Shown in pieces: positions 10,161-30,270 of a DNA stretch of 64,000 bases. A program made the position numbers and the translations under genes. Location: assembly GCF_003704095.1 (NCBI RefSeq), contig NW_020844518.1:1-64000 (forward strand), in the 5' to 3' direction. The notes beneath the pieces were generated by a model. That model was not told the DNA's origin, did no database searches, and saw only the letters and a list, made by a program, of their open reading frames with translations. This stretch comes from Pocillopora damicornis. Lineage: Eukaryota. Numbering within the stretch: position 1 is the stretch's first letter; each line of letters opens with the position of its first letter.

Positions 10161-11340
10161 TTAAAAATACATCTTCACATAGGTTGCCCAAAGTTGAGAT
10201 GTGAGAATCCACTCTGCTATTAAATTGGACGACAGCCACCACCCAGGAAAAACAGCATCAATCTGAATGTAACTGTGTCTCCAATGTGGGCTTGAGTGAT
10301 TCAATAGATTTGTGATTGTATTTGCCTCAGAGAAGAGCACAGTAAACGACAAGAAAAAGAGAGAGCAGATAATTTTGACTAATGTGAGCTTGAGTGATTC
10401 ACTAGATTGTGATTGTATTTGATATAGGTGGCTAAATGAAAAGCACAATAAACGAAAAGAAAACAGAGAGCAGATAAGACCGATCGTACTGAATTATCAC
10501 TCGAGTTTTATCGAAAGATGGTAGTAAATGAGTTTCAGAGTTTGTATGAAAACTATGGATTAATACCATTTTGATTGTTAACAATTGTTCCGTGAGCGTA
10601 TTTGGATATGACATGTTAAATAACTGAGTGGGCTATAACCAGTCTCTTATCCAACAAGCGCGAATGGAATAGTTTTTTTATTAAATTTCATCCTGAATGT
10701 TTGAGTATTTGAAGCTTTTCTCAGTTCCGTAACAGTTGGCATAATACATTTCCATATAACTTGACTCGGAATGTGAGCTGATAACCGGAGTCGACTAAAC
10801 CAATCAGAACACTAGAATTGCAATATATATAGATATGTATTTGTCTCTTGGTGGAGGTGGGGAGGGGGTACTTCTTAGCAATAGGCTAATGCGATATGGA
10901 TGCTAACTTCTCGTAATTAAATCATAAAAAAATTGTGGTCGTATAGATCCAACAAACAAAAGATTATTAATGAATGAGGAAACCGAATTGAGCCTCTTTG
11001 GAATAAAGAAAATAATATGCAACAAGGACAAAAGCATACAGGTAAAAGAATTTTAATAACCTCCCTTGATACACAAGAGCTTAGGACGGAATGCAATCTC
11101 GTTCTCGGCTAACTGCATTGGTTGCATCGCTTCCTGCAGTATCTCTTAACTATGGAATTCCTGCAGTGGCTTATCGGCCGCCTTCGGCAACTTCTCCATC
11201 TGTCTCGACAAACCGCTACGTAGAAAATGAAGAAAAAGACTTAAGTTATTCATGGTTGCTGCCGCTCGTTAAAACTATTTTAAAAATATCTCAACTCACA
11301 ACATTCACTCACTCACATTAATTTTTTTCGCCAATTAACG

Positions 11341-17781: not shown

Positions 17782-20700
17782 AAGGAAAGGAAGGATTGGA
17801 ATACTGGAATACAGCAAAAGAAAGTCTGTTTTGATATGAAGACGTCTCCGAATAAGGCCGCCATTTTTTCTTCGCGTTTCATGGATCTTACTACCTGTGA
17901 GCCCGAGTGGCCTATTTCCCGCGAAAAAATATTCTGAAAATAAACCGTTCTGTGAACCGTTCCGTTCATTGTCTCAGTATGAGAGTTGAATGTTCCAAGT
18001 AGCGGCATTAAATAGTCTAAGACAATGATATAAAGAGAGGTATTAGTCAGCGTTCTCATTGTTCTGACGTCTGTCAAGTTTATGTCAAAAGCACATCAGT
18101 ATAAGGATTTGTAGCCAATGCTTCTCGACCTACGTCTCTAGCGAATTAAAAGACGCTGATCAATATTAGCGAGCCCGCAATGTGCTATGAATATCGGTCA
18201 GAGGATTCTTTGGTGCAACACCTGTCACTTAAACATCTCTACGTGAATGTCAGCTCTGACAACAATGCACCAGCGCAGTTAAACGATTGCATCGAAGGTT
18301 TATTACATTTAGGACTTTATTACATTTAGGACAGTTATTACATTTAGGCCTTACTCACCACATACCTCAATTATTAGGACATATTGGGCTACAAAATGTG
18401 AAAGTAGGAATGAAAGCAAATTTTGGGTGACTTGCCGCAGTTTGTCTGATGTATGTTGACATTAGCTCTTAAAAAGGCGCTCGTAGACAGAATATCGATG
18501 TTGCTGTTTAAGGACGTTTAGCTCTGTGTTAATTAATTCAGTTTTCCAGCTACTCCAATATGAGAAGCGATAAGGTTTTGAGGTAAAGCCTAATAACCAA
18601 ATCGACCTTAACAGAGTAGTGAGGATCGTAAAAAAACAAGGAGTTCCTACATCAACCAGCAAAAGTAGTGCATTGCAAAATCATTCATGCAGAACCGCAG
18701 CTCTGTTTGTTTAGGTACAGAATTCTGATTAATTGTTATTACGTTTTTTTAAGCCGGGTTCTTGCAATGCATTTCAGTAGGGAACTCTATGATTTAGCTT
18801 ATTATTTATTCATTTATCTAGTCTGTCCATCCATTAATCCATCCATTCATCCATTCACCTATCTATTAATTAATTAACTAATTCATTTGTTTTGAACCTG
18901 CTTGAATCCAAAACCAATCAAGCTTTGACCCCTGGTTGTTTTGTTTTTTTAAAGTACATATCACGTGAGAGTACTCGAGAGATTACTGAAAATTGGTCTC
19001 ATTCAGATTTCACGTGATCTATTAAGTATAATTATTTTTTGAGGACATTTTCCAACTTGCTATTTCTGGCATTTTCATGTCAATCATCGAGTATTCACAT
19101 AGAGGTTTAGCAAAAACATCCCAACTTTTATTTGAGTTCATTTTATTTTAGTCCGCCATATGAGCATTCCTACTTCTTTCGCGGCCCTAACTCAGAAAAT
19201 TCGACCTAATAATGTATTACTTGGATAATTTTGATTAGTAAATAGAACTTGCTAAATGAAAGTTGGCCAACGAGAGCGAATGCGAATAATTTCTTCGTTG
19301 TTTATGAAAAGGAATGCTTAACCAAAGCAATTTTAAAAATAAAAGTAAAATACCAAAAATGTTTCATTTGGAAAGGAAAAATAAAGAAAGTTTCCCATAA
19401 ACTCGGGATCTAATGGTATTTCGATGACCCTTTCAAAGTATTTTGCTCGTACTAATCAACGTCCCTTTGATTTCGTGTCTGCTTTCCAGGGATATCGATA
19501 CTTATTTTGACCCACAAAAATATATATTTCAGTAGTAGAAGGGCTTTTACGTTTCTATATAGTGTCATCTGCACACGAGTGGTGTTAGAAGAATTCTCGC
19601 AAGTTCAGGAAACGCTTAACTGCGTCTTGAGAACATTCGAGAATTCTCCCAGCCCCCTCTCAACCAAGGACGGAAGGAAGTTTAACGGAATTAGATTATA
19701 ACTAACTTTCAGAGTGACTTTTCTTTACGTAGAAAAAAAAATACTGAAGTGGTGTGTTGAGAGCAAGAATGAACTTTTTTTGAGAAAAATGTTCGTTGAT
19801 ATCACTTTCTAAACGTCGTTAGAAAGTTTAAATAGCAACAAATAGGAAGGCTTTCAGGTTGGCGAGGTTTTTCTGGGAAATAAACAACAAACGACCAGTA
19901 TTTTAGAGCTATTGATCTTCTTTAGTATTATCTATTTGTCAGGTTACAGTTTTTACCTTCAGCTTTACTTGCCTTTCAGCTTGTAACCTAATTTTTTTTC
20001 GTTTAGCTAAAATCTTTCGTCCACTAGAACGTCGTCAGAATTCGAGAATGCAATAAACTCCTGTCCTTTATAGATTGTTTTAAGATAGGATACCATCATG
20101 TACGAGTTCACGACAGATCTTTGTCTGTAGCCATGCACGGCATGGAGAATAGTGATGAGATCCGAGTTACGATGCTTCAACGGTGTCTTCTTGAGCTCCT
20201 TGGGGATGTTTTCATTAAATTATGGAAAAACTAGGGCATTATTCCTCCGAAAGGCAACATTTCAAGCAAGGTTTCCCTTTATAAATCACAAACATGCTTT
20301 CACCTAACTGCGTGAAATATCTTTTGCCTTTAAGCCACTAACACGTAGGCTTACTTTTAAGGTTTTTACATTTACGGAACGCATTCATTCCTTCGTTCGC
20401 TCAAGAATAAGTCTGAAGTATGATTACATTGTGGCAACATAATAACATTCTCGGACTTAGCGACGCAAGCAGAATTCACATTAATTTGGTTTCATGAAGC
20501 AGAACGTCCTAAAAGATCGATATATCATCACGCTGTTTATGTGGAGATGAAGACCTAACAGCACAGTAGGAATATAACATGATAAACATTGCAACAATTA
20601 CAAAGAGGTAATTTTTTTCTTTGTGTCGTCTTGATACGATTGTGTTGCAGGTGCGAACCAAGCTTTCCTTAAAGCTACGTTAACTATTTCGTTATTTTTT

Positions 20701-20834
20701 CTTCATTACAGAGTTTATTTTAGGACTTAATTAAACTTCTTATCGTGCAATTAACCCTTAAAGTCAACCGCTAAATATGGTTCTTATCTCGCTTGTGCCT
20801 TAGGGTTTTAAGAACTATTTCTTCTTCTCCTTGC

Positions 20835-23800
20835 TCAACAGACTTTGCAGCTTTTCTTGCATTTGTTTTTTATTCTTCTCCTCCTTCTGCAGCGGCGTAT
20901 CCAAGACCGACGACGACATTTGCGTGACCTGTCTTTGCAAGTTGCTGAGAGGTGGAAAAGGAGAAAAGATGTTTGAACCAAATAAAGTTACTCTAAAGTT
21001 AAATTAAAAATTCAGCAATTACAAAATTGAATTCCGCTTAGCTAGATCTTAAACGGAAAGTGAGTTAAGACTGGCGGCATAAGATTCTATTTACTATTGA
21101 GATTTATGTTCAACCAATGTAACAACAACAGTAACAACGTTTTCCCTCAAAACTCTTTCGAAAAGATATCTAAAAAGGCCGAGTTATTACTTAACAGGCT
21201 TCTTTTTCACCTTTGGGCTTAGGTTTGGCCTTGGGTGTGGGCTTGAGTGTGGTCTTCGGGGTAGGCTTGGGCGTGGCCTTGGGCGTAGCCTTGAGCGTGG
21301 CCTTGGGCGTGGCCTTGGGCGTGGCCTTGGACGTGGGCTTTGATGTGGCGTAAAGTGTGGGCTTGGGTGTGGTCTTTGGCGTAGGTTTGGGTGTAGCCTT
21401 AGGCGTTGACTTTGAAGTGGGCTTGGGCGTGGGCTTCGGTGTGGGCTTGGGCCTCCTTGCACACTCTGCTTTGTACAAAAGGTTCGCCTGTTTTGCATCA
21501 ATGGAACTTAATCCTTTTCGTTGGCCAATAGTAACCTGGAAAAAATGAAGAAAGTTTCTGTTAAAAAAGGGAAACATAATTCTCATGGTCCCATAAGTTT
21601 GCAGATCTGTGGAGCTGGATGTGTTTTCGTATGCCAATCTATCGGGCTTAGTATGGATAAGGCCTCGCTCATGTGCTGGTCACGTGATTCAGAGAACGTT
21701 CCCCGTGTGGTATATGTGCATATCCAAAAATGGTCATGCTGTCACTAATCTGTCAAGCGAAGATCGCTTTCATATTTATTTCTCAAAAACTGCTGGTAAC
21801 CTATGTGATATATACAATGAGAGAATATGAACAGGTTCCCTTGAGACTATAACCTGTGATAAGTTCTATTTTAAGAAGCAGTTTTTGCAGTTACACGGCG
21901 CATTTACTGAGGCCGAATGTGGCTGGAGTGCTCATTAATTCATTAATTGAATGTCAGGTAAGGAAAGCAAGAAACGGTTGTAAGAAATAACCACGCTTCT
22001 ATTTTTCTATCCTGAGTAACGTACCCCTGATTTTTTAGCAACTATTGTAGGTTTTCCATTCCTACTGAAAGCTGTACCCCTATAATGCATTAGACTTCCA
22101 TAGTCGTATGGTGTGCCGAGTGAATCGATTTTTCCTCTGCTGTATTTATAAAAATTAGATTCCATCCCTGTAATCGAATAAAATATACAGCCCGTTAGAA
22201 AAGAACTGCAGTTAAAGCGAGGCACAATTTTCATAGTTTTTGTAAAAGTAATATTTCAAACGACAATCCTTTTAGATGATGTAGCCAATCACGTCCACAG
22301 ACCTTGAAGTTGGCCATTAAGTTGACTTGGAAACTTTCGCTGGCACTTGTTTTTCTAAGTCAAGTTTTATTCATTGACTCTTTGTAATCACGAACGTGCT
22401 TTTTTTTCTTCTTTTCGAAATAGTCACCTAAAACCAAAGTTGTTTTTGATTCAGTAAGCTCATTACATCTTTATTTACCGAGTTTGGACTCCAGCCTCTA
22501 GCATTAGGAGTTTACCAATAGTTACCTGAAACTATATTAGCACGATTAATCCTGATGAACTTATCTCTGTCAGGACGGGACTGCTCATGGTAAAATCCGA
22601 TAGCGTGACCTGGAAAAATTTAGACATTTACATTTAGAGCGTAACTCTCATCATAGGATGGAAAGGAGTAAAATGGGGCGGAATGGAGTGGAATAGAATA
22701 GAATGCAATGGACTGGAGTGGAATATAATGGAATGGAGTGATTGAAGTGACATGTGGTGGAATGGAGTGGATTGGAGTGGATTGGAGTGGTATGGAAAGG
22801 AGTGGGATGGAATGGAGTGGAATAGATTGAAACGGCATATAACGGATTAAAATCGGCTGAAATGAAAGTGGGATGGAATAAAATGGAGTACAATAGAGTG
22901 GAATGAAATGGAATTGAGAAAATGGAGCGGAATGGAATAAAACAGAGTGGAATCGAGTGATATGGAATGAAGCACTACGGAGTGGAACTGAGTAGAATGG
23001 AATGGAATAAAGTGAAACGGCATATTATGGATTGAAATAGGCTGAAACGAAAGTAGAATGAAGTAAAATGGAGTAGAATGAAATGGAATTGAGAAAAATG
23101 GAAGTAGAATTGAGTGGAGTGAAGTGGAGTGGAATGGAGCGAAATGTGGTGACCTTGGATGGAAATAAAAAGAATGGAATGCATACAAATTAAAGATTAT
23201 TGAATAATATTAAAATTGCACATTTTAGTAAGCAATTTGCAATATTCAAGAACAGTCAACCCTATTTGCTGTTTTGTATGATTGTCGAGTGATGCGATAT
23301 TTCAAATATACTTACATTTCTTTCTAGTTCTCTCTTGTAATTTCTGGTTGTAAGTCTCATATAACGTACCACTGTGTGTGAAATTACGTTTTCGACAGTT
23401 CGCCATCGGCTTGGACAAAATTTACGTACCCATAGAACTAAGGAAATATTTTTAATCAGGGACCTATACCGCCGCGTGTGAGCTTTTATTAAAAAAAAAA
23501 ATAAAAAAACAAAAAAATCCCCGTAAGGGAGCTGCACGGGGAGGCGTACGTAGAGCCACGATGAGACCCCGCTAGATACAAAATATAATAAGAAGCATGT
23601 GATCAACTGCTTATTGACCGAGTAAGGTCACGCCAGACGCGTAATATTTGGTTCTTAGTCATCACGCGTGGACCTCGCCGCGATCGATGCAAAAAAAGCC
23701 GAAGAATTTTGTTTTTTAGTAAATGCTTCTCTTCGTTTCTCACACCATCAGTTTGTCAAATGATATTAGCGAAATTGTTAACACCCGGAAGACACTCTAC

Positions 23801-26800
23801 ATTTCTTTCTCTTGGAATTAAATCTTTGTAAATTTGATGCTGCTATTTGATAACAGTTCATAGAATAAGAGTCACCTATTTCATGAGAACAGATGCCCTT
23901 GTGCCAGCATCCTGGTGCGAGAAAAATATCTTGGCGCCTACCAATTCTTCCCACATATGATGCACATCTGTAATATAAACGGTTTTGATGAAAACTTTTT
24001 TCAACAGCTGCACGTTGTAAAATATATCGTTATCTACTTAAATTGATGACCGAAAATTAGGGATAATCATTACGGGGTAATCTTAAACTGCGGCCTATCT
24101 GTTTGACCAAGCTTCTGCGTGTTTAACACAGCCTGGCCGACGTTTTAGATTTTCCCTCAACGACCAACCAAACATTCAAACACAACAACAACAGGGTGAA
24201 TACAAACAAAAGGAAACCAAAACCCTTTTGAAGTAATTGTTTCACTGATAAACAAGATAAATTATTCCAGGGTGGGTGGGAAGGGTGGGGGATGGGAAAG
24301 GAACATGTTGGCTAATTCATCCTTACAGGGAACACTTTAATTGTTGAAAAATGAACGATACGTTAATTATTCTTGATTTGATTGACATTTATAAGCGATT
24401 TCATTTATCTACACATAATCAAACATACATGTATGTGGCACGTATTTTATCGCTCCATATATGGCACTGTTGCACGTGCTTACAACGGAGCGTTTAATGT
24501 GTGTCCTTTGGGAATAAGCCGGGAGCTGTGTGAGGGAGTTAACCGAAGCGTTGTGGTAGGATCGTTAAATCAAGGGAATAAGCGTGACATAACAAGGAGC
24601 GTGGAAAAGCTTTTTCAAGTTTTCGACACAACACAATGAGCTAAGAAAATTATATCGGAAAGAAATAACTAACACCAATGACTACAGCAAAACCACCTGA
24701 AGCGAAAAATAAACAAAAACAAACCAGCAAACAAAAAGGAAACTGTACACTTACATAGAGGAACAGAAATTTATCATTTAATAACGCTTACCCTCTGCCA
24801 TATCTGAAGAAAACGTAAGCTTTCTGACTAAGGCTTGTTCTTCTCTTAAACTGAATACAGGTTTTTGAGGTCCAGTCGGCCATCCCAGCTCTGATGGCAG
24901 ACATCGCTCGGGAATAGCGACCTTCAAAAAAAAAAGGGGTTATTTCTAGTCTAATGACAACGTTTCCCCAGCTTTTTTATATCGCGTCTTAAAACGCAGA
25001 GGAGTCCCATCCAGCTATAATCCATTGTTATTAAAACTAATTTTTGAGAAACACATTGATAAAGACAAGGCTTTTGCGATGATTTTTTTTTCACATGATG
25101 AATTTACGTGGAGTCCATAAACTTAAAGATCTCATATATTTTTTTGAGTTATTGTGAAATATTCAATTAGACTATAGTTTCAGGACATACTATGAGCTAG
25201 ACTTAGTAATAGGTTTACAATGTGACATGAACTAACTGAGGCTTGGAGAGATCTGATAGAGGACGACTCCCTTAGGCCATAATTTGGATCTCGACGAGGC
25301 TCTTTTGTGGCGAATCCCATCAATATCTAATCCTTCTTCTGCTCTTTCCCGCTGCTCCTCCGGAAGTAGCATGTCTCCTTCAAAAAGACTGGAGTTCCTC
25401 AAGCCAAAATTTTCTGAGGACAGGCAAGCATGAATCAGTTAGTGCCATACTGTATTTTACAAAGTTGTGTTATATTCTTCTCACTGAAGTTTTTGCTTAT
25501 CAATCTTCCCTCTTTACTGTTAAAATTGAGGAGGAAAAAATACAAGGAATCACCGCCAAGTCCAGGCGTGGGGTTGGCCCAGGGATATGACGTTTTCGAA
25601 GCAGTTTTTGATAGATAGTATTACGAGCAGAAGTATGTTTAGTGAGACGTCTGCATGACGGCCAACCTCGATCTGATGTTCTGTGAAAACGATGAAATGG
25701 CAAACGTCTTAGACGAAGGACTCAGAAAAGAAAGGAAATAGCAAAATATCTAAAATTAATGGTTACTTTTAATTACAGTATGAGAAATGACAACCTTCTA
25801 AGACAAAAGATTCAGAGAAAGAGAGGAAATAGCAAAATGTCTAAAATTGATGGCTATTGTTATTTACATTATATATGGTGAAGTTTTTACTCTGACAACG
25901 GAAAATCGCGACGGGTTCCTCCTAGGGAAACAAAGTGACAAAGAAAGTTTATTGTGAAATTCTGCTTCACTGGATCGATAAAAATCACACTTGCTATCGT
26001 ACTCAGAAAACCAAGAAGAAGGAAAATCGGGAATATAAGAAAGATATTCCAATATAGTATTTAAGCTGTCCACAGACTTCTGAATACCACAGTAACAGAG
26101 TGTTTTACATTTTATATCAGTTGTGCGGAACTAATTTAAGGCTCTTGAATATTATTACTTGAAGGAGCTCTATTGTTGCTGTTTCTTTTTCTTTACTAAT
26201 TTTTTTTGAGAATGTCATCTAGCTTTAAATGAGTACGAACACTCACAAGGCACTCGATAACACCACTCTTAAGGTAAGGCTATATTTGGAAAGCCGGGGC
26301 TATGAATGGAGGAGAGCATTGTTGCTGTGTAGAAATTATGTATCCATTGCTCAGCACTGGAAATCTGAACTGAGAGGCGATGAGTTTCAAGCCAATCTTG
26401 CAATGTTGAATTTGAAGCTTTGTAATTGTTAAGTGCTTTGACCGATGAACGTGGACAGCGCCCCGAAAACGATGACTCGATGACATCAATACAGCAACAA
26501 AAACGAGAGTCGTGACTCACAGTGTATTTTGTATCTTAGGAGCCCAGAACGCTTTACTTTATGTAATTATTTTGTCACGAAAGGTACATTTAGGAAGGAT
26601 GAGCTCAGGATTGCTATTTTTATTTAACACAATAGGAGAAAAAATAGTTGAGTATCAGATCTGTATTATGTATCGATATGAACCACTTTTTGTCGAATGA
26701 TTGCCCCAATATCCAACCTCGAGTAGCACTTATGACAGAAGTGACGGCAGTACCCTTACCCTAATACAACAGTATTAGATATATTCATCTGGGTTTGAAT

Positions 26801-28600
26801 GGTAGGCTGATTTCAGTGGAATAAAAAAAAACAGAAGTTCTTCGGGTCAAGGTTGAAAGAAACAGTGACGGCAGTTTGTTAAGAGCTTGATGCAAATGGC
26901 TAAACGAAGGCAAATATTTAAGAAAAAAATGAAAATTCCAGTCACCATTCTGCAACTTTAGGCTTAAAAGCAGAGAAAAACAAAACTTGAATTTCTATCA
27001 GCTGGCTAATCATACCGAATTGAGCTTCCCTGGTGGACAAGGACCTAATTCAATTTAAGCACTTTTAGAGAACCAATTCGACCCAAAAATCTATTCAAAA
27101 TAATGATGATAAATCATAATAATAAAAATAATGTTAACAACAACAATCTTATTTACAGTAATTATAATAATAATAATAATAATAATTATTATTATAATAG
27201 TAAACCGATATTAATACAGCAAAGACATCTAGAAACTATCGTGATTTCAAGACAAATCGATTTGCTTTTAAATCCTTTAGTTTCAGTGTCTTATCTCATG
27301 CTTGTGTGATAACTTTTCCAACTGCTCATTTTATTTCGAGGTGCTGATGTTAACTCAAACTCAAGAACTGGTATCTCTTTTATGTTCTTTCTCAGTCTAT
27401 TTATCTTTAAATCATTGCTTTATATGAAGAGATACAACAAGGCTGAACTTTAACCTTGTTATTGCGTTTGATGAACAAAACATGTTGCAAACGAACGGAA
27501 TCCAAAACTCGTTGAAAGGTTTACCGCAAATCAGTTTAAATTATTTCTGAAATCGATGCGTCAATTGCGATATGGTTTGTGGACTAGACACCAATCAAAT
27601 AAAAGACACGTGTGGAAAACATTTCTTTTTGTGAAAAGGAAAGAAACATCAGGTTTGAGTGGCTGTTGCTACTTTGCACTCTAAAAAGAAGACAAGTACT
27701 GTGCCTTAAGGGCACCCATTTATCGCATTTAAAAGCCAGCTTTTGCATGATGAATGGAGATCGTGCTCTTGCTAGAGGTGTAAGTAATTATCTTAGCCTT
27801 TAGCGTGCTTAAATATTCTGAATCAATTCTACGCAACTTCAAATCATATAACATTGAAAGAATCAGCCGAAACTGGGACTTATCCGGAAAGTTCACGAGG
27901 CAATATAGGAGTATTTTTTCTTATCCTGTTTTTCTCACAATAATCATTAATTCTTACATCCTTTTAATGCCAATGCGAAGAAGCAGAATCAAGTTATTCG
28001 ATCTTCTACCTTTGGAAATCTTAGTTTAAGCTCAAAAATGCATTGAGCTTTTTACTAGTAAGATCAAGAAACAGTTTATAGGATTGTTTGAATATTCTAT
28101 GCCACGCATGAAGTGTTGGAAATCCGTAAAAAAGCATCAGTAATATTGATAATGATAGAACCTGAGCAACTTTCTATGAAAACAATGATTCATCAAATAA
28201 ATTTGATTCTTCTTGCAATCTTTGTAATGTGGCCCATGATGAAATGTTTGTAGGTTCCAAGATTGACGATTATTATCTAAAGTTATGAAAAAACAAGCTT
28301 TTTTCAATGTTGAGTCTTGCCGTCAGGCAATTGGCAACAATCACGAATGCATATTACTATGTGATACAAACTTTGCCGGGTTATCCATGATTCGAATGGA
28401 AAATTTTCATTTAAAGCTTAATCTCACCGATTTTGAAGGTAATCTACGGTAAACCCGAAAGGAAAAATAGTTAAAGGCACCGATAAACAGTTTCATAACT
28501 TGAACAAACTCAAACTCATAAAGCAATTAAGCTTACCGTCAGGATTATGTACAGCGGCAAAGCCAGTGTTGATCAATAAAAGGACGCTAATGCACCTCAT
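20835..28600 (-). CDS. Astacin-like metalloprotease gene C with Pro/Lys/Thr repeat linker and polycationic ShKT domain (374 aa)
   Basis: Exons (minus): 28537-28600 ([21 protein letters not shown]), 25237-25413 (FEGDM...[15 protein letters not shown]), 24792-24921, 23876-23967 ([30 protein letters not shown]), 22526-22609 ([16 protein letters not shown]), 22025-22167 (YDYGSLMHY), 21211-21535 (IGQRKGLS...C plus PKPT repeats), 20835-20944 ([35 protein letters not shown]). Total 1125 nt in frame. AATAAA at 20714-20719. Confidence 0.92.
21212..21451 (-). repeat. Coding 12-bp tandem repeat (20 tetrapeptide units, PKPT/PKAT-like)
   Basis: Translation [80 protein letters not shown]. Confidence 0.95.
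22667..23180 (+). repeat. (GGAAT/GGAGT)n pentamer array with internal higher-order duplication, gene C intron 4
   Basis: Degenerate tggaa/tggag pentamers. The segment gaaacggcatat...ggaattgagaaaa recurs at about 22830 and 23014. Confidence 0.9.
27107..27200 (+). repeat. (AAT)n / (ATT)n microsatellite
   Basis: aataataataataataataattattattat. Confidence 0.8.
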
Positions 28601-28704: not shown

Positions 28705-29094
28705 GTCATCCGAGCATTCAACATCAATTTATATCGGCTTGTCACGTATTGAGTCAATACTGATCTCTTTTAATTGCAACAAAAATGCATTTATTTAAAA
28801 CTACTTATTGGCCTCACGTTTCAGTGTTGAAGTGATACGTCATTCAAAAGCATTCCGGAAAACAAATAAACATATCAAAAATGACTGATGATAAAAACGA
28901 GCTTGTCATGTCGGTTTGCTTAATAGTTCTCTAGTTGATCTTAAAGTCGTAAATAATGTCTATTCCCACAAATCATATAAGTTAAATTTGAGCAGATTTT
29001 AATTCTGCCCATTTATAAAATTAATGTTTACATGTTTGACGTCTTTTTGGAGTCAACAAGTGGCCTTTTATGTTAGAGAAAGTGCAGAGTGGAG

Positions 29095-30270
29095 GTAGTT
29101 GGGCTCTAGCCAGCAGATTTGTTGGTCTGTCGATGAACACTTCAAAGCAATCGATGATCACAATCACCTTTCGATTAAATGTGTATCGGCATAGTTTTCC
29201 AAAACTGTTCTCTGTCAGGCCAATGAATAAAACAGAGAGCCTCAGATCCATAGCATTTATCCATGACGAGAATATCTTGACACACTTGAAAGGGACACTA
29301 CAAATCAGTACGCTAAATCTTGGAATGCAACGTTCAAACGGAGTTTCATCAGAACCATAAAAAATTATTGAAATCTATTTAATATTGTAGAACCAGGTCG
29401 TCGTGACAAATGTGGAGCTACATGCTCGAAAACTATCATAAAGACTTCATAGGATGGTAGACTAGTGTAAAAATGAACTTTCTCAGGACAATTAAAATAA
29501 TATTTGTCTCGGACTCGATGTACAAAGCTTGTAAGCATATAATTGAATTTTTCTGTCTTTGTTTTAGCGTTTTCTGTTCCTCCCATAGTATCTCAAAGTC
29601 ATCAGTCGAAGTTAATTTGTCTACCTGAATGATCTCGTCAGTTTCTTCGTCACCATCACAGCTTGTACTACAAGAAGGCTCGTTAAGATTGGTATATAAG
29701 CTAAATGAGCTAGCAGTTGAAGCAATATCAAGGATAGGGAGTCCACTTTGATTCAACTCTTTTCTTTTCTTAGCGGCTTCGATTTCTTGTCGCTCTAATT
29801 CGTGTTTTCTCCGTTCTTTAACCCTTTCGTCTCTAGCTTTTTCTGCTTCGGCATCACTCTCTTTAGGCGTCTTTGATTGTTTCTTTCCAAGGTTAAGAGT
29901 TGGTACCCAGTCGAAGTTAAAAGCGTCCCCATATTTTGCAGCTTTTCCGGAAACAAAGTGACGACCGCAGACTCGTTCGCTGTCGAGGACTCTCTTTGTT
30001 TTTGTGTCGTCTCGACTGATGGCCGCAATCCAGCGTTTTCTTTTTATTTCTTGTGCGTTCTTCGTGCTCTTGTCCTTGGTTTGTAACGATTTTGGGGATG
30101 GAATGGAAGCTTACTTTATGTTTTCCGCCGCTTTAAAAACCACATCCAACAACTATACTGTACGAACCATACTTCACGCTTCTCTGTGATTGTTTACGCT
30201 TAAGGGGCACAAAGATGGCGGGTAGCAACCGTTGTCAAGGATAGTGTCAGGTGGGTGAAAGTCAGGAATA
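29095..30270 (-). mobile_element. Decayed THAP + HTH + DDE_Tnp_4 transposon (ISL2EU / PIF-Harbinger-like), 3' truncated
   Basis: Minus-strand pieces: THAP-like IVVGCG...FHSIPKI...KRWIAAISRDD...RVCGRHFVSGK...DWVPTLNLG; then KVHFYTSLPSYEVF, FMVLMKLRLNVAFQDLAY*F...VSRIFSSWI and VIIDCFEVFIDRPTNLLARAQ (first catalytic Asp). Several stops and frameshifts. Confidence 0.8.

Follow-up and report, generated by a model that had tools for sequence, protein, structure and literature searches.

The first 64,000 nucleotides of contig NW_020844518.1 of the coral Pocillopora damicornis (RefSeq assembly GCF_003704095.1; hereafter the window) raise the question of why an astacin metalloprotease should end in a six-cysteine ShK-like domain loaded with arginine and lysine. 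The domain is encoded at window positions 20835-20944 (minus strand), the eighth and last exon of an intact astacin gene, gene C, which is the third of seven tandem astacin genes in window 1-61000 (minus strand). An earlier note, made from the sequence alone, had pointed out that the domain keeps the six ShKT cysteines and carries 19 Arg/Lys against one Asp; translation and recount confirmed this (35 residues with 12 Arg, 7 Lys, one Asp and six Cys, net charge +18). The evidence below leads us to favour, at about even odds, a reading in which the tail of gene C acts as a tethered polyanion anchor for the protease.

The domain is part of the transcribed gene. Mapping of the Logan protein P0001 (374 aa) placed eight exons between 28600 and 20835, with a TGA stop codon at 20837-20835, an AG acceptor directly before 20944 and a phase matching the donor after 21211. 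The exon 7-8 junction on which the earlier note had relied (21211/20944; GT-AG intron of 266 nt, phase 1) is present in the RNA contigs of all four runs used, which come from four studies and were drawn from 23 runs listed, and the exon 5-6 and exon 6-7 joints are likewise present in all four. Single RNA contigs span 20300-20944 in three of the four runs, and loose ends at 22611 in two of them continue into exon 4 when compared by eye. P0001, the one protein that a search with the domain returned, carries the same 35 residues at its own C-terminus and belongs to a cluster of three members in which the domain is identical throughout; among the RNA differences listed, the only variant inside exon 8 (position 20895) is synonymous. 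An assembly or frame artefact is thus ruled out by the GT-AG joints in all four RNA runs and the independent full-length protein.

The gene C product is an astacin zinc protease (M12A, PF01400) with intact motifs. The HExxHxxGxxH zinc motif followed by Glu is encoded across exons 4 and 5 and is also found in P0001, as is the SxMHY Met-turn of exon 6, while the propeptide in exon 2 (net -5) contains an FEGD-type motif, which serves as the aspartate switch, and the activation site RHKR at residues 56-59. An AlphaFold model fits the astacin fold, matching 3lq0, 8a28 and 1ast at E values of about 1e-16 to 1e-17, with the pro-astacin 3lq0 at 2.5e-17. The N-terminus encoded by exon 1 is hydrophobic and, judged by eye, signal-peptide-like, and the protease is likely secreted. 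The architecture itself is of an already known kind, the ShKT-astacin: as in the ShKT-bearing M12A astacins of cnidarians (Hydra HMP1, HAS-7 and Nematostella NEP-6), a signal-like N-terminus is followed by a propeptide, a catalytic domain, a linker and, from a separate exon, a ShK-like domain at the C-terminus. However, gene C differs from them in a mature net charge of +63, in an 84-aa basic repeat stalk and in a +18 domain with one aromatic residue, where the median homologue domain has a charge of +5 and three aromatics.

The charge of the domain was compared with two samples of ShK-like domains, and in both gene C came first. It ranks highest of 57 distinct domains from this genome, the other 56 having a mean of +3.55 (SD 3.0, maximum +11, gene C z 4.8), in a biased sample rather than a census, which combines Cys-pattern finds in the window with 40 loci (30 top-scoring ones among the 150 PF01549 matches listed, and 10 found with the gene C domain). 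It is also the most basic of 79 distinct domains taken from the best 120 of 361 astacin homologue hits, where the next highest is +13. The statement of the earlier note that the sister domains in the array are far less basic holds for genes D to G (+2, +3, +6 and +7, respectively), but it left out gene B, the runner-up in the genome sample, whose ShK-like exon at window 11115-11210 (minus strand) is strongly basic at +11. This exon sits just beyond an N gap and is missing from the NCBI models to which gene B was matched. Besides its charge, the gene C domain has the lowest mean hydrophobicity of the 79, with four hydrophobic residues against a median of seven, and its single aromatic lies outside the loop between Cys3 and Cys4, so that the conserved loop aromatic found in 60 of the 79 domains is lost. 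The gene C domain is the far end of a trend rather than an isolated oddity.

The membership of the domain in the ShK family was examined at the level of profile and of fold. PF01549 matched over its full model length, although at 15.3 bits (E 0.03) the match falls below the curated cut-off of 20.9. The six cysteines in ShK spacing and an Asp two residues after Cys1 are invariant across a 41-row alignment including gene C, the rows having been chosen by that same Cys pattern. Folded on this alignment, the domain is helical, with a predicted local distance difference test score (pLDDT) of 90 for the best of five models (range 61-90). Structural comparison with 48,161 chains gave Z of at least 2 for eight, each of them a ShK-type peptide (the best at Z 4.0 with an rmsd of 1.6 over 34); such low Z values are expected at 35 residues, and the model, being built on an ShKT alignment, is biased to the ShK fold. 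Aurelin and the tail domain of a Brugia metalloprotease (2mcr) tie as best matches at Z 4.0, Foldseek returned 2mcr as a single weak match (E 3.2), and the highest identity among the structural matches (46%) is with the tail domain of MMP23, in a structure titled as a channel-blocking domain. The gene C domain is thus predicted to keep the ShK fold, which it would have in common with the potassium-channel blockers ShK and BgK and with the tail domains of MMP23 and BmK1, the latter two, like gene C, being located on metalloproteases.

Trees of the catalytic domain suggest where the charge came from. Gene C is sister to a paralogue on another contig, C4392, both in FastTree (0.977; 113 of 123 proteins, 10 having been dropped as partial, fused or without the motif) and in IQ-TREE (95/92; 31 chosen proteins). 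FastTree joins this pair with proteins from Orbicella and Oculina and three further ones (0.837), whose domains have the same length and motif as that of gene C and charges of +11 to +13; IQ-TREE left the gene C/Orbicella/Oculina node unresolved, and the approximately unbiased (AU) test gave no rejection (p 0.4). Basicity is shared by the likely orthologues, at a level lower than the +18 of gene C, and on this pattern the basic ShK-like domain is probably old, with gene C having pushed it further. The basic ShKT astacins of robust corals that we compared (Orbicella XP_020619036.1, Oculina ACROYT_G020497 and Pocillopora XP_066017400.1) share with gene C the 34-residue Cys spacing, a Ser-Trp-basic motif and 62-68% identity, but differ in net charge (+10 to +13), in having three to five aromatics and in a linker of a few residues. 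The C4392 paralogue (P0003, C4392:120400-124200) is dispersed and has a catalytic domain of +24 to +27 that a short linker joins to an ShK-like domain of +10; its model pdam_00009546 runs into an intron and omits the ShK-like domain.

When gene C is aligned with the paralogue and five orthologues, 9 of the 34 columns of the domain are specific to it, with five new Arg and one lost basic residue, while 23 of 195 catalytic columns are specific, two of them to Arg; the domain thus changed faster than the catalytic part (p 0.03). Aromatics fell from four or five in the five orthologues to one. The paralogue took another course, gaining 14 basic residues in its catalytic domain and losing four in its ShK-like domain. 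Microsatellite slippage as a source of the arginine runs is ruled out by the unchanged domain length and by mixed codons, five different Arg codons being used.

The domain hangs on a stalk that is itself basic and that the earlier note had not taken up. This stalk consists of 84 residues of Lys, Pro, Thr and Ala built on a 12-bp repeat unit, with zero acidic residues and a net charge of +23, and it is predicted with low confidence (pLDDT 36-50) along most of its length, with no helix or strand. Its length varies among the cluster members (84, 96 and 98 aa), and the RNA run X1 has a 24-nt insertion in exon 7. Neither the paralogue nor the orthologues have it, making it lineage-specific. The mature enzyme as a whole contains 75 Lys/Arg and 12 Asp/Glu, and its net charge is divided between the catalytic domain (about +22), the stalk and the ShK-like domain. 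Since the catalytic domain and the stalk are equally basic, the positive charge is a property of the whole enzyme. Outside the cluster of gene C, the sole protein with a higher net charge is an astacin of Porites harrisoni (+79).

That Porites protein belongs to a second kind of basic tail. Four astacin records from three species, P. harrisoni, P. lutea and P. lobata (P0050 and P0124-P0126), have a Cys-free Gly/Arg tail of 76-158 residues with a net charge of +28 to +70 in place of the ShK domain, and in Montipora (P0062, P0127 and P0128) a 60-residue tail has an Arg/Lys/Gly-rich first half and a net charge of +13. A single clade of gene C and the Porites tail genes was rejected (AU p 0.003), which indicates separate origins of the gene C and Porites tails. 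Because such tails also occur without a ShK domain in Porites, charge rather than the ShK scaffold appears to be the recurrent trait. A bolder extension, to which we give a low probability, is that reef corals repeatedly made astacins of a single family into polycation-tailed "flypaper" proteases, whose tails would grip mucus microbes and make them permeable, with the tethered enzyme digesting them. A literature search covering the main texts of PubMed Central (open licence) and bioRxiv turned up neither the hyperbasic domain nor the stalk nor the apparent convergence of polycationic tails, and found no paper on arginine-rich ShKT astacins.

We favour the anchor as the simplest account of a rigid, ball-like domain of +18 mounted on a flexible stalk of +23, with unrelated basic tails in other corals as its counterparts; the spread of charge over all three mature parts, the Arg gains by substitution, the loss of aromatics and the gain of the stalk also speak for it. 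Of the functions that the earlier note had listed, polyanion anchoring fits best. By analogy with its relatives, the gene C protease would most likely be secreted by gland cells into gut or surface mucus. A cut at RHKR would activate it and remove the only acidic part of the protein, and the ShK-like domain would stay attached to the mature protease. The earlier note had also seen convertase-type sites in the domain, and four such motifs are indeed present in the mature enzyme; however, the Cys frame encloses all of them, and the stalk has none. With the usual ShK disulfide connectivity of C1-C6, C2-C4 and C3-C5, cuts at these motifs would nick the domain without freeing it, and if the cut fell between Cys3 and Cys4, all three disulfides would still hold the two halves together, so that release of a free peptide is unlikely by position. 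The arginine-loaded, predicted ShK-fold end domain would then form a disulfide-stabilised electrostatic anchor that holds the enzyme at negative surfaces such as mucus glycans, the glycocalyx, or prey or microbial envelopes. The stalk may be extended and possibly O-glycosylated, letting the catalytic head sweep around the anchor at a distance of about 25 nm if the chain is polyproline-like.

Published work offers a setting and a precedent for such an anchor (here and below, papers are cited for excerpts of their text). ShKT-astacins are reported mostly from barrier epithelia and gut (PMC9848320), gland cells of the Nematostella mesentery express astacins (PMC6767649), and coral mesenterial filaments are high in zinc metalloproteinases (PMC11269664). 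IFN-gamma has a basic C-terminal matrix anchor, and secreted semaphorins bind glycosaminoglycans (PMC9977683, PMC11295036).

Several points weigh against the anchor. High salt screens electrostatic binding, and coral mucus has been found to contain 264 mM Na+ (PMC12496222). The Arg bias of the changes in the ShK-like domain (Fisher p 0.01) comes from a test picked post hoc, with the alignment already seen, and the trend is not uniform along the gene C branch, where the catalytic domain lost seven basic residues and gained four. Constraint on the domain is weakly supported, the contrast among the three cluster members between 0 of 35 differing residues in the domain and 5 of 170-197 in the catalytic part being within chance. 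The Porites tail is known from gene models alone. Finally, protein searches found no orthologue with the exact gene C domain outside the three-member cluster: a domain search of 50%-identity representatives gave one weak, unrelated multi-ShK protein, and a search for gene C within longer fused models gave 20 hits among 345 candidates, none orthologous and the best at 61% identity, which is weak evidence of absence.

Second to the anchor, at a low probability and compatible with it when tethered, ranks an antimicrobial role, in which the domain would kill bacteria, either in place on the protease or after another protease has clipped it off, like damicornin, AmAMP1, digitiferin or protamine-type polycations. 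In corals, peptides with a ShK domain have antibacterial activity, are released into the mucus by secretion and are salt-sensitive (PMC12496222, PMC12745922), and damicornin, AmAMP1, digitiferin and aurelin share with the gene C domain a ShK-type Cys frame, cationic character and, as is likely for gene C, secretion; the net charge and the place of aurelin among the tied best structural matches also agree with such a role. However, aurelin ties with the tail of a metalloprotease, so that the fold match is uninformative on function, and the exceptional hydrophilicity of the domain, far from that of typical ShKT domains, suggests poor amphipathicity; with one aromatic residue, the membrane-inserting antimicrobial that the earlier note had entertained is weakened. 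The four peptides are, moreover, small stand-alone precursors (digitiferin, 81 aa when mature, derives from a short precursor with no protease; PMC12496222), while the gene C domain is fused to a protease without a release site, the stalk having none of convertase type.

Somewhat less credible is the idea that constraint on a duplicated gene with an already basic domain was relaxed and that the charge arose as a by-product, with no new role. The charges of the orthologues, the paralogue and gene B, the loss of the Cys3-Cys4 aromatic and the faster change of the domain would all fit it. Yet the changes favour Arg (5 of 9), none of the six cysteines has been lost, the domain is the same in every cluster member and its one listed RNA variant silent, and the same gene also gained a basic stalk. 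Less probable still is a role in venom, with the cationic tail packing the protease into the polyanionic nematocyst matrix, which contains poly-gamma-glutamate, or fixing it on prey membranes. Homologues of the astacin NEP-6 have been reported from corals (PMC12745922), and some of the homologues retrieved here are named "nematocyst expressed protein 6-like", but such names are automatic transfers, and related proteases are reported in gland cells (PMC6767649). Last, block of voltage-gated potassium (Kv) channels, as by ShK and BgK, is very improbable: despite the predicted ShK-like fold, the MMP23 match and the citation of the metalloprotease tail BmK1 among ShK-like worm peptides (PMC5793123), the Lys-Tyr dyad of these blockers aligns to Arg-Ile in the gene C domain (BgK, a weak alignment at E 1.9), the Cys3-Cys4 loop has no aromatic, an anemone ShKT lacking the dyad showed no activity on Kv channels (PMC5793123), the Acropora and Porites species surveyed in the cited excerpt yielded no ShK neurotoxins (PMC12745922), and ShK and BgK are type 1 toxins freed from short precursors, while the gene C domain is fused to its protease in RNA.

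The exons of gene C are collected in the table below.

Features of gene C in the window (positions count from the first nucleotide of the 64,000)
Feature	Position	Strand	Content
Exon 1	28537..28600	-	ATG at 28600, GT donor after 28537; P0001 residues 1-21 match 100%
Exon 2	25237..25413	-	Acidic propeptide, FEGDM motif, RHKR furin-type site, start of catalytic domain; AG/GT ends
Exon 3	24792..24921	-	Astacin catalytic domain
Exon 4	23876..23967	-	Catalytic domain, first half of zinc motif
Exon 5	22526..22609	-	HExxHxxGxxH zinc motif, second half
Exon 6	22025..22167	-	Met-turn region of catalytic domain; Pfam Astacin E 2.5e-12
Exon 7	21211..21535	-	End of catalytic domain and 84-residue Lys/Pro/Thr/Ala repeat stalk
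Exon 8, coding part	20835..20944	-	ShK-like six-cysteine domain, net +18, then stop
3' UTR	20300..20834	-	Transcribed at least to 20300

Within intron 4 of gene C lies a GGAAT-like simple repeat (window 22680-23150). About 400 bp upstream of its ATG, window 29024-30110 (minus strand) holds a reading frame for a THAP domain (Pfam E 4.4e-5) and, after it, a weak, stop-containing DDE_Tnp_4 fragment, likely a decayed DNA transposon. Two more astacin exons lie further along the contig, and consecutively numbered astacins in Oculina and Porites suggest that the tandem array is old. The 5' part of gene G (57960-60821) aligns poorly, and the gene may be damaged. The neighbours of gene C match P. damicornis proteins at NCBI, mostly at 95-100%, as the fused models pdam_00014405 and pdam_00014407, the public models joining genes A and B, genes E and F, and genes D, E and F; gene C itself was absent among the NCBI-named proteins in protein searches. 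No paper was found on gene C among the Pocillopora astacin papers listed, as far as titles and the starts of abstracts go, or on four neighbouring pdam identifiers. With gene C absent from those named hits and its neighbours in fused models, expression studies may have overlooked it.

Gene C, with its paralogue, orthologues and array neighbours D to G, offers a natural contrast series on one scaffold (+18, +10, +11 to +13 and +2 to +7, respectively) that permits binding and killing to be compared on natural sequences. If the "flypaper" idea were true, such tails would be a two-part weapon of innate defence and feeding that standard annotation has overlooked. Should the tails serve to hold proteases in mucus or at microbes, they would be relevant to coral feeding and to defence against disease.
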